Assembly (NCBI GenBank): GCA_965261595.1
Contig: CBDHDG010000005.1
Location: 288,001-352,000 of the forward strand
DNA length: 64,000 nt
Direction of reading: 5' to 3'
Source: a bacterium
GTDB lineage: Bacteria > UBA8248 > JACPRG01 > G963555815
The position numbers and the translations under genes were made by a program. A model generated the notes under the pieces. The model ran no database searches. It was not told the DNA's origin and saw nothing but the letters and a program-made list of their open reading frames with translations. Below, piece after piece: positions 2,495 through 6,101 of the stretch; the stretch's first letter is position 1, and every line of letters begins with the position of its first letter.

Positions 2495-2600
2495 CTTGTG
2501 GGGGGCGCTTTTTGAAAGGCGCCCCCCCACGCCCCCCCGCAAAACTTTTGTTTCGCGACAAGGGGCGGCTCCCTTGGGGAGCCGCCCCTTGTCGCAAGTG
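2495..2600. repeat. Intergenic palindromic repeat, copy A (GGGGGCGCTTTTTGAAAGGCGCCCCCCC...CCCCCCCGCAAAACTT followed by a long GC hairpin)
   Basis: Near-identical to 49690-49795; related copies at 49903-49958 (inverted) and 63797-63870. Confidence 0.85.
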
Positions 2601-2847
2601 CTTCCTTAAAATCCATTTATCTGTCATTTCGGTTAATCTGTTATTCCGAGCACAGCGAGGAATCGCGCCTTCCCCTCCCCGTTGGATATCCACCCCCCGC
2701 TCAGCCTTCGGATCACAGCGGACTTGAAACCGGCGTAGCGACTGTCTACCTCGTCAAGGGTGAATCGCTTTGGGCTGCCATGGTTGCCCGGTTCGGACCA
2801 TTGGACCGCCCCTGGGTTATTGGACACTCGGGTGAGGGTATTCGACC

Positions 2848-3752
2848 TCATGCGGCCTCCGCAACTTGAGCGAGTTTTTCCTGCCTTGCCTGGGCCGGCG
2901 TTCGGTAGCCGTAGCCCTCGAGAATCCAATGATGGTTGTACAGGTTCTTGAACTCAAGCAGCGCCCACCGCAGTTCCTCTACGGTGGCGAAAGAGCGCAC
3001 CCACAGGAGATTCTCCTTCAAGATGCGGATAAACCACTCACAGTAGCCATTTCCCTCGGGCGCCCGCACGAAGCTGGGCGAACTGGTCATGCCCAGGTAG
3101 GCGATCTCCCGCTGAAAGTCATCGGACAGATAGGCGGGGCCGTGGTCGTGACGAACTTTAAGCCCCTCGGCGACGTCCGCCTCCAAGCCGGCGAAGCGCT
3201 CGGCGACCCCCTGCCGGATCGGCTCCAGGGCCTCGAAGCGGTTGCCGCTCTTGGCCGCATGGATCCCCACGCAGTCCACCGAGCAGTGATCCACCGCCAC
3301 GAACACCGAGGCCACCCCCTCCTCGGTGGTCACCGTCGTCGTCATGTCCGTGCCCCACATTCGGTCGGGCCGCTCGGTGCGGATGGTCCCGTTGTGGGCC
3401 TTGGGACCTCGGGGTTTGCCCACCCGGTGGGGGGCCTGAAGCCCCGCCTCCCGCATCAGGCGACGCATCCGCTCCTTGCTGGTGCGGATGCCCGCGAAGC
3501 GCAGCCTCGCCCACACCTTGCGGTAGCCCTCGCCATGGAAGGGAGAGTCCTCCAGGACCTGCCGGATGTGGCCGAGGAGTTCCGCATCGGTGCACGGGCC
3601 CACAGGGCCGCGCTTATTGGGCGTGGGGCGTTCATGAACGGGGACCGCCTCTCGCCGCCGTTGCGCGTAGACCGTGGAGCGCGCCAAGCCCCAAAGGGCG
3701 CACACCCGCTTCAGGCCGTAGGCTCTGCCCGTGGAGGTGAAGCGGGCCTGAC

Positions 3753-3756
<4 letters not shown>
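2848..3756 (-). CDS. IS3-family transposase OrfB (DDE integrase core)
   Basis: GYRKVWARLR, WGTDMT, RHDHGPAY, PEGNGYCEWFIRILKE; ATG overlaps the orfA stop (ATGA). Confidence 0.92.
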
Positions 3757-5058
<1,302 letters not shown>

Positions 5059-5094
5059 TCAATGCCGACATAGACTTCCTGGGTGTTCATGAAA

Positions 5095-5305
5095 TGGGTC
5101 TCCCTTCCTTGCGAATCCGGGCTCAAGATGGCCCTAGCGACTGTTCGGGATTCGACTTCCAAATGGATGGGGAGCCTCGCTACGAAACGGTCTCTAAGGA
5201 CCTGGGGCCGGTGCGGTCTCCCGTCCACGTTCTTCCCCTCACCCTCGGGGATAGACCTCCTCATTGTCATGCCCAAAAAAGGCCGCGACAAGGCTTTGTC
5301 CATCA
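5095..5305 (-). ncRNA. Putative IS110 bridge RNA (target-binding and donor-binding loops); ends approximate
   Basis: Guides ACCGGCCCC (5204-5212) and CGTAG (5180-5184) match the reconstituted target ACCGGCCC-CT-ACG. ACAGTCGCT (5136-5144) and CAAG (5108-5111) match the donor junction ACAGTCG-CT-TG. Each pair flanks an internal hairpin. Confidence 0.8.
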
Positions 5306-5456
5306 ATGCCAAGATTACAAGGGGCCGGTCTCCGTACCGGCCCGTCACACGCCCGCGTGGAGAACGGGGTGTTTCAGCCAGGCGACTCCCTTGCATCGGG
5401 CAATCTATTGAAAGGCAACCAGTTCACCGGCCCATCCGAATGAGGCGGAAAAAGAC

Positions 5457-5490
5457 AAAAAAAAGACCGCGCCATGACGGCGCGGCCCTT
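5457..5490 (-). terminator. Rho-independent terminator of the 5532-6101 gene
   Basis: Minus strand GGCCGCGCC-GTCAT-GGCGCGGTC followed by a T8 run. Confidence 0.75.
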
Positions 5491-5531
5491 GCGGATTCAA
5501 TACACTCGGCTCGGGAGGAAAACGCCCGGTC

Positions 5532-6101
5532 CTACGGAACGTTGCTTCCGTCGCTGATGGGCGGGACGATCCTCCCCTCGATGACGCCGAAATTCCTGGC
5601 GAATGTCAGGTTGGATTTCGGCGGCGGGAACTTCTTGGGCGCGAGGATATCCAGGGTGACGTCAAACGACCCCACCCGGCTGATCCGGCCCTCCACGTCC
5701 CGCGCCCAGATCTTGATGTAGACGTACAGGTCCTGCGTGTTCGAGAGCGTCCCGCTGTGGATGGCGTCGAACGTGCTCAACGTGAAGTGGCCGGAGACCT
5801 CCTTCTCCTCGCCCGGCTTGATCCGGTAATTGCCGAAGGAGACTTCCGCGTAGGGCGGGCTCTCGAAGCTCCAGACGATCTCCTTGAGATCGGCCGCGCC
5901 CGCCTTGACCGAGACGTAGACCGGCAGGTCGTTGGGCGGGACGATCCGCTTCGGCGCGTGCATCAGGACGAGCTTCGGGCCATCGGGCGAGATGATTCGA
6001 CCCTTCCGGATCGTCGTCTGCGCCATCGCGCCCGTTGCGGCGATGGTTATCCAGAGAAAGAAAACCCCCAGCGTAAACGCCCAAGCTTTCCGAGTCGCCA
6101 T
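5532..6101 (-). CDS. Hypothetical secreted protein (beta-rich, signal peptide ending AMA|Q)
   Basis: RBS GGAGA upstream, signal peptide, high GC3 codon usage, terminator downstream. Confidence 0.7.
   Translation of the reverse strand: MATRKAWAFTLGVFFLWITIAATGAMAQTTIRKGRIISPDGPKLVLMHAPKRIVPPNDLPVYVSVKAGAADLKEIVWSFESPPYAEVSFGNYRIKPGEEKEVSGHFTLSTFDAIHSGTLSNTQDLYVYIKIWARDVEGRISRVGSFDVTLDILAPKKFPPPKSNLTFARNFGVIEGRIVPPISDGSNVP

Follow-up and report, generated by a model that had tools for sequence, protein, structure and literature searches.

In IS621, an insertion sequence of Escherichia coli (Durrant et al. 2024, PMC11208160; structures 8wt6-8wt9), the left end of the element encodes a bridge RNA. 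In the experiments described there, this RNA is transcribed and bound by the recombinase, and recombination depends on it, a set of properties known for IS621 only. As described in that report, the RNA carries a target-binding loop followed by a donor-binding loop. The 5′ strands of the loops correspond to the left target or the left donor plus a CT core, and the 3′ strands are complementary to the core plus the right target or the right donor. The same report describes a junction promoter for IS110 elements, finds loop 1 of IS110 bridge RNAs variable and loop 2 conserved, and predicts bridge RNAs for 85.7% of the IS110-group elements in ISfinder and for thousands of orthologues. Handshake guide positions are defined in a companion source (PMC11208158).

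We analysed a 64-kb stretch of contig CBDHDG010000005.1 (positions 288,001 to 352,000, forward strand), hereafter the window, numbered from its first letter. The segment 5319..2739 on the minus strand very probably represents a decayed copy of an IS110-group insertion sequence, the left end of which encodes an IS621-type bridge RNA. The copy has the two protein domains of IS621 in a homologous transposase and resembles IS621 as described in PMC11208160 in the placement of the RNA in the left end, the order of the two loops, the CT core and the relation of the 5′ and 3′ strands to targets and donors. A variable first and a conserved second loop, a predicted promoter split over the circle junction and handshake positions 3′ of the AG that pairs with the core are further features in common. 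The two systems differ in that the transposase is distant (phmmer bit scores 82 and 27), the guide sequences and the target are others, the local copy is dead and the lineage is known here from sequence alone. A first-pass annotation of the window had proposed an IS621-type architecture and a natural orthologue with its own guides. The former is backed by transposase pieces with the domains PF01548 and PF02371, by covariation around two internal loops and by the guide rules, and the latter by the four guide strands, which follow the IS621 rules for flanks and ends.

Other described members of the family are less close or differ in organization. ISCro4/IS622 (9t56; bioRxiv 10.1101/2025.05.14.653916) belongs to the same family, and the N-terminal piece of the transposase is slightly closer to it than to IS621; its relationship to the lineage found here is nevertheless distant. 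Elements of the IS1111 group, which carry their seekRNA or bridge RNA in the right end (as outlined in PMC11208160), share the DEDD recombinase family and RNA-guided target choice. The window element was also considered as a member of that group, which is marked by long subterminal inverted repeats and a long, RNA-bearing right end. This was ruled out, as only 15 nucleotides (nt) separate the stop codon (2756..2754) from the CT (2738..2737) and the RNA lies in the left end; the element therefore belongs to the IS110 group.

The element is bounded by the core dinucleotide CT at both ends (5321..5320 and 2738..2737), and CT directly follows the right end in every relative listed in our right-end comparison. 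The termini and flanks are as follows.

5091..5319, minus strand: non-coding left end of the IS110-group element; first letters TGTAAT / TGTAATCTT (relatives begin TGTATCTT)
5329..5322, minus strand: left flank ACCGGCCC, then the core CT at 5321..5320
5320..5329, minus strand: left target half-site ACCGGCCC plus core CT, adjoining the left end on its outside; equals the 5′ strand of loop 1 over nine bases
2737..2745, minus strand: right-end terminus ACAGTCG (2745..2739) plus core CT (2738..2737)
2732..2736, minus strand: right target half-site ACGCC (ACG at 2736..2734); the flank continues ACGCCGG

The extended left flank reads ...GACCGGCCC-CT, with the core at 5321..5320 on the minus strand. 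The insertion site is intergenic, at the 3′ foot of a hairpin, GGGCCGGT-acggag-ACCGGCCC (5343..5322, minus strand), and the left target half-site is itself the 3′ arm of this hairpin at 5322-5343. In this respect, the site recalls ISPpu9, ISPpu10 and the IS110 elements described as targeting repetitive extragenic palindromes (REP) or hairpins (PMC12288879; bioRxiv 10.64898/2026.03.19.712850). It differs from the sites described in those sources in that the window holds no more copies of the target motif than chance would give: the target as a local repeat was tried and rejected, as 46 matches were found at up to three mismatches vs 41 expected. The empty site as a split tRNA or tmRNA gene was likewise dropped, as ARAGORN found neither in the rejoined flanks. 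About 140 nt downstream of the right end lies a near-perfect palindrome of about 41 nt, GCGACAAGGGGCGGCTCCCC / GGGAGCCGCCCCTTGTCGC (about 2555-2595, minus strand).

Relatives of the element were collected at the protein and the DNA level. A protein search with the C-terminal piece of the transposase returned 2,694 proteins at E ≤0.001 among 8,000 candidates scored; the best full-length relatives are 57-65% identical, and no full-length relative exceeded 65% among the candidates scored. A scan of genome contigs, queried with an alignment of 32 relatives and the window piece, yielded 505 confirmed places. Of these, the best 80 (52-63% identity) were retained, with Dehalococcoidia, Nitrospirota, Gemmatimonadota and Rokubacteria among their sources; within these best 80 of 505, no relative exceeds 63% identity, and the window's own genome is not represented. 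An in-frame N-terminal GIDV motif is present in 68 of the 80 loci, and the conserved donor-loop motif was found in 64 relatives, not in L001, L073, L075 and L076. Three exact duplicates were removed, L023 was dropped (a long insertion runs past the extracted piece), and 59 left ends, whose transposases are 53-63% identical to that of the window, were aligned with the window excluded. In the plasmid collection, only remote matches to the transposase gene were obtained (up to 71% identity over 33% of the query among the matches listed), and none at 80% coverage.

RNAalifold applied to the 59 relatives predicted a long outer stem, an internal loop and a 4-bp inner hairpin, followed by a short outer stem, a second internal loop and an inner hairpin, with compensatory changes in 19 of 27 pairs. 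Two predicted pairs inside the donor guides were removed, giving 25 family pairs. In these, 97.6% of the cells are paired, vs 81.8% in shuffles (none of 500 came as high) and 36-49% when the partners are slid; changes on both sides occur in 19 of the 25. A covariance model, R1, was built from the same alignment, again without the window. When both strands of the 64 kb were searched, R1 gave a single match, 5231..5099 on the minus strand, full length, at 87.6 bits (E 7.4e-17, the E-values of this model being rough), which ends 9 nt before the transposase ATG at 5090. The window sequence retains 23 of these 25 pairs, and the two-loop layout drawn in the first-pass annotation is borne out by the covariation of the relatives, with the guide strands in the internal loops.

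5099..5231, minus strand: bridge RNA core, target-binding then donor-binding loop (full-length match to R1)
5163..5228, minus strand: target-binding stem-loop, in which an outer stem and an internal loop are followed by the inner hairpin GGUC/GACC (5202..5189)
5101..5150, minus strand: donor-binding stem-loop, with outer stem UCCC/GGGA and inner hairpin GGGC/GCCC at 5134..5119

The leader between the terminus and the target loop (5232-5319, minus strand) is long, a further difference from IS621: it measures about 90 nt up to the start of the model, whereas most relatives have about 45 nt and a few (L003, L006, L019, L024 and L048) have 12-14 nt. Over all 81 sources, R1 gave 77 matches. In L073 (1289-1395 and 2542-2623) and L001 (1281-1386), the target loop is intact and the donor loop breaks after GAACAGT in the R1 match. 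The remaining donor loop of L073 lies about 1.15 kb further on, and in both loci something is inserted inside the left donor guide. L006 features a second, weak match (5243-5385, 36.7 bits), 2.6 kb downstream of the first. Its own right end is one mismatch off (ACGGATA vs ACAGATA), and it belongs to a more distant IS110 element beside the first.

The relation between the RNA and the DNA ends is most exact in the donor loop, the guides of which are located as follows.

5135..5144, minus strand: left donor guide ACAGUCGCUA, which repeats ACAGTCG of the right end together with CT
5108..5115, minus strand: right donor guide strand UUCGCAAG, in which CAAG is complementary to CT plus the TG of the circle junction

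Both guides match the circle junction ACAGTCG-CT-TG. The 9-mer ACAGTCGCT occurs at exactly two sites in the 64 kb, 5144..5136 (donor loop) and 2745..2737 (right end), both on the minus strand; the earlier proposal that the loop 2 guides match the junction over nine of nine bases and over CTTG is thereby borne out. The pattern extends to the family, in which the 5′ strand of loop 2 reads GA-ACAGTTG-NNN. The contig reaches the right end in 61 relatives (three end too early). In 56 of these, the element's own 7-nt left donor guide is found at the right end, at the expected distance past the transposase gene and directly before CT, and in the remaining five the right end matches at six of seven positions. 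Non-consensus 7-mers occur in 14 relatives (ACAGTCG and ACGGTTG in four each, ACAGCTG in two, and ACAGGTG, ACGGTCG, ACAATGG and ACAGTTA in one each), and the same variant is found at the right end in 11 of the 14. The 3′ strand, which ends in GCAAG and is complementary to CT plus the TG of the junction, varies in the same manner. L024, L048 and L057 carry the right donor guide CTAG, and their left ends start with AGTAT after CT, giving the junction CTAG; L031 carries TAAG, and its left end starts with TATAT, giving the junction CTTA. The 7-nt left donor guide is followed by two or three nucleotides that differ freely between relatives (CC, CG, TG, AT, AC and others), although the core is CT throughout. 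A comparison of the relatives, without a formal test, showed no partner for these nucleotides, which in the window happen to be CT.

The target loop was compared with the insertion sites of the relatives. The strands concerned in the window are the following.

5203..5212, minus strand: left target guide strand ACCGGCCCCA, which in the +1 register agrees with the left target at 7/7 positions and continues with the core C and an A opposite the core T
5180..5187, minus strand: right target guide UUUCGUAG; its AG is complementary to the core CT, and its CGU to the right-flank ACG

In the usual register, which corresponds to that described for IS621 (PMC11208160), the 5′ side consists of G, 7 nt, CT and 1 nt before the inner hairpin, and the 3′ side of 5 nt and AG. 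Loop strands were taken from the model alignment (A4), the left end was located by its terminal motif, and the right flank was taken after the right end (in five loci, after a right end with one mismatch). Duplicates were dropped, as were hits for which no left end had been located, leaving 74 entries; 71 relative sites entered the left comparison, including one partial hit with empty guides that was scored 0, and 67 entered the right comparison. The right flank agrees with the right target guide at all five positions in 55 of the 67 sites, with a mean of 4.73 vs 1.37 for 4,740 mismatched pairings, only 0.6% of which reach 5/5. For the left flank, the mean is 4.15 of 7 vs 2.21 in mismatched pairings, or 4.85 vs 3.10 for the best of three registers. 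Guides and flanks co-vary across relatives, as do the donor variants. In the window, the left match is unbroken over nine bases, up to and including the first base of the core, in the +1 register, one base nearer to the hairpin; a left-flank score of 7/7 in the best of three registers is reached by 0.06% of 5,094 mismatched pairings of guides and flanks among relatives.

The two loops also differ in conservation, as in the IS110 bridge RNAs mentioned above. In 67 distinct relatives, the loop 1 guides are variable, at 0.32 and 0.09 bits per position, and the loop 2 guides are conserved, at 1.76 and 1.60 bits per position. The handshake guide of the target loop is located as follows.

5178..5179, minus strand: CG at the handshake guide position of the target loop, complementary to donor positions 6-7 (CG)

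In the window, the first handshake positions can pair with the non-cognate DNA, a G with the C at target position 7 and a C with the G at donor position 7, as each can in 62 of 67 relatives. On the target side, the second position is able to pair in no more than 19 of 67.

Several observations weigh against a bridge RNA in this copy or against the target assigned to it. As a check, the first-pass annotation had proposed to fold the leader and to score it against IS110 bridge-RNA covariance models; R1, built from the relatives, gave the full-length match described above, and the folding gave no support. The single-sequence fold of the leader (5321..5091) is no better than that of shuffled sequences (z 0.24). 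Over the 133 nt of the R1 match, the family structure has an energy of -28.9 kcal/mol vs -40.7 kcal/mol for the minimum free energy (MFE) structure, a gap of 11.8 kcal/mol; the latter keeps the helices of loop 1 and refolds loop 2. Single-sequence folding cannot decide the structure, because large internal loops are penalised, and it was set aside as a deciding test, having given no signal. A search of Rfam 15 over 5099-5231 returned no family even at E ≤10, whether Rfam 15 holds such a family not being established; over the whole window, no family reached its gathering score, tRNA, riboswitch and leader families included. In the window, the mismatches C-C and C-A interrupt two of the family pairs in the loop 1 outer stem. 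The 5′ strand of this loop has 12 nt, vs 11 nt in 65 of 67 distinct relatives, a feature that together with the one-base shift also sets the window apart from IS621. The left target agrees at only four of seven positions in the usual register, 7/7 requiring the shift, and the right target agrees at three of the five non-core positions (ACG, then two misses), as do about 14% of mismatched pairings. Finally, the target rule of the window itself rests on a single insertion. The claim that the loop 1 guides match the joined flanks thus stood on the left, where nine bases agree in a row, albeit in the +1 register, and only partly on the right, at three of five.

The register seen in the window may be a regular variant; it may also stem from insertion at a near-cognate site or from a later one-base change in the C run. 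The last two possibilities, in which the loop 1 match is real and the true target would be ACCGGCC-CT-ACGAA, deserve serious attention, even if we consider them short of an even chance. In the usual register, the guide would be ACCGGCC followed by CC and A. The flank has one extra C, and one C fewer would give 7/7 in that register. The right target guide, moreover, predicts ACGAA, and the flank is ACGCC. In contrast, the +1 register is also the best for four relatives (L068, 7/7; L040 and L044, 6/7; L048, 5/7), the guide strands of which all end in CCA, so the shifted register may be a regular variant. The guide strands of L006 and L019 also end in CCA, yet fit the usual register. We regard it as unlikely, though worth stating, that the window and these four relatives follow a variant left-guide rule in which CCA ends at the hairpin, the target lies one base closer and A stands opposite the core T.

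A junction promoter, too, is predicted, at the motif level only.

2752..2757, minus strand: -35-like half of the putative junction promoter, TTGACG, inside the right end
5312..5317, minus strand: -10-like half, TAATCT, predicted to be functional only with the right and left ends joined

At the junction, the two hexamers would be separated by 17 nt (13 bases, CT and the TG of the left end). Both ends could be located in 57 distinct relatives. In 39 of them, the same place is occupied by TTGAC with A, T or C as the next base, and the left-end hexamers begin with TAT in at least 55 (from the 12 most frequent hexamers), TATCTT being the commonest (26). These motifs point to a sigma-70-type family promoter that has its -35 half in the right end and its -10 half in the left end and that would exist only in the circle.

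By homology with IS621, an active element would excise as a circle. The joining of right and left ends would create the promoter (TTGACG, 17 nt, TAATCT), which would transcribe about 200 nt of the left end, and the RNA would fold into two stem-loops with internal loops. Loop 2 would hold the circle junction ACAGTCG-CT-TG, loop 1 would hold a chromosomal site of the form ACCGGCC(C)-CT-ACG(AA), and the DEDD/Tnp recombinase would exchange strands beside the CT core. The structure shared by the family, the relations of the guides to flanks and ends and the lesions of the transposase are seen directly in the data; transcription, protein binding and catalysis are presumed by analogy with the published work on IS621.

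The transposase of the window copy is dead, as the first-pass annotation had recognized. The gene is found in three pieces.

4762..5090, minus strand: N-terminal piece with the DEDD/RuvC-like domain, ATG at 5090 (PF01548, DEDD_Tnp_IS110, E 1.7e-15)
4207..4758, minus strand: C-terminal piece in another frame (Transposase_20, PF02371, on 4758..4198, E 3.3e-18)
2754..2798, minus strand: last 14 codons and stop, VRTGQPWQPKAIHP*, separated from the rest by an IS3 element
2802..4206, minus strand: nested IS3-family element with orfA, orfB, inverted repeats and ATG repeated on both sides

Compared with the transposases of solved complexes, the C-terminal piece scores E 6e-22 with IS621 (8wt6) and 1e-21 with ISCro4 (9t56), and the N-terminal piece E 3.9e-5 and 2.7e-7, respectively. 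Alignment with five full-length relatives revealed that two residues are missing after an EAT motif and that about seven codons are gone, with a change of frame, between FAEAV and PDA, near 4760. Read-through of the frameshift by a four-letter codon step (TCCC=S) was tried and rejected: such a step moves the frame the wrong way, so the frame break reflects base loss, not gain, and the pieces were then handled separately. Further downstream, the gene is cut after LNAM by the IS3-family element (1.4 kb, 4206..2802). The frameshifting deletion near 4760 and the nested element have inactivated the gene, and the local copy can no longer move by itself.

The nested element has the hallmarks of the IS3 family, namely overlapping frames (helix-turn-helix, then an rve-like integrase core) and terminal inverted repeats. 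Its orfA (4166..3753, minus strand) encodes an HTH_Tnp_1 domain and its orfB (3765..2848, minus strand) an HTH_21 domain, and the two frames overlap at 3765..3753. The matches of orfB to rve (31.5 bits against a cut-off of 32.6) and rve_3 (26.4 against 26.5) fall just under the Pfam curated cut-offs. Inverted repeats at 2817-2835 and 4170-4188, 84% complementary, lie near both ends, and a 3-bp duplication, ATG, flanks the element at 4209-4207 and 2801-2799 (exact termini and duplication by visual inspection of the sequence).

The copy most likely carries its bridge RNA as a silent relic. According to a bolder reading, the intact RNA of the dead copy may have been kept for serving a recombinase encoded elsewhere; that it is still made and acts in trans with the intact recombinase of a sibling or related IS110 element elsewhere in the genome, as the first-pass annotation had suggested, strikes us as improbable. 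The 23 intact family pairs and the integrity of all four guide strands speak for such a role. Moreover, IS621 bridge RNA supplied in trans supports recombination (as described in PMC11208160) and is weakly expressed from integrated loci (as described in PMC13626964), so that action in trans is possible in principle, but nothing found here supports it. For the integrated state, a search of 4900-5600 returned no sigma-70-like promoter, and the family's -35 half now lies 2.6 kb from the left end, at the other end of the element. A strong intrinsic terminator on the same strand (5490..5462), made of a 13-bp stem and a run of T, closes the gene 6101..5532 some 140 nt upstream of the left end. No second copy of the element was found in the 64 kb (blastn), and the closest relatives stay within the identity limits given above, 65% for the best full-length proteins and 63% for the best 80 of 505 scan loci.

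That the conserved left end is instead a DNA site for transposase binding or a 5′ leader for translational control, its loops resembling the flanks without guiding, is scarcely credible: the region does lie directly upstream of the transposase start and its single-sequence folding is unexceptional, but pairs change in a compensatory manner in 19 of 25 cases, the loop strands change with each element's own flanks and ends over dozens of unrelated sites, which a leader or a protein site would not need, and the same arrangement guides recombination in the IS621 experiments described in PMC11208160. All sequences quoted in the first-pass annotation are present where it had placed them.

The IS110-group copy of the window, read as the carrier of an IS621-type bridge RNA, is a further example of a known RNA-guided recombination system, in a family that already holds thousands of predicted bridge RNAs. 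Its practical value is small, as the copy is dead and shows no sign of activity. The relatives constitute a clean natural data set for the guide rules, with a right target guide of 5 nt plus AG and a left donor guide of 7 nt, and they also display variation in the 3′ end of the left target guide. If the variant left-guide rule were true, the programmable register of natural bridge RNAs would not be fixed. The known bridge RNA family thereby gains one natural set of guides and a cluster of about 70 related left ends, with Chloroflexota, Nitrospirota and Gemmatimonadota among the phyla of origin.

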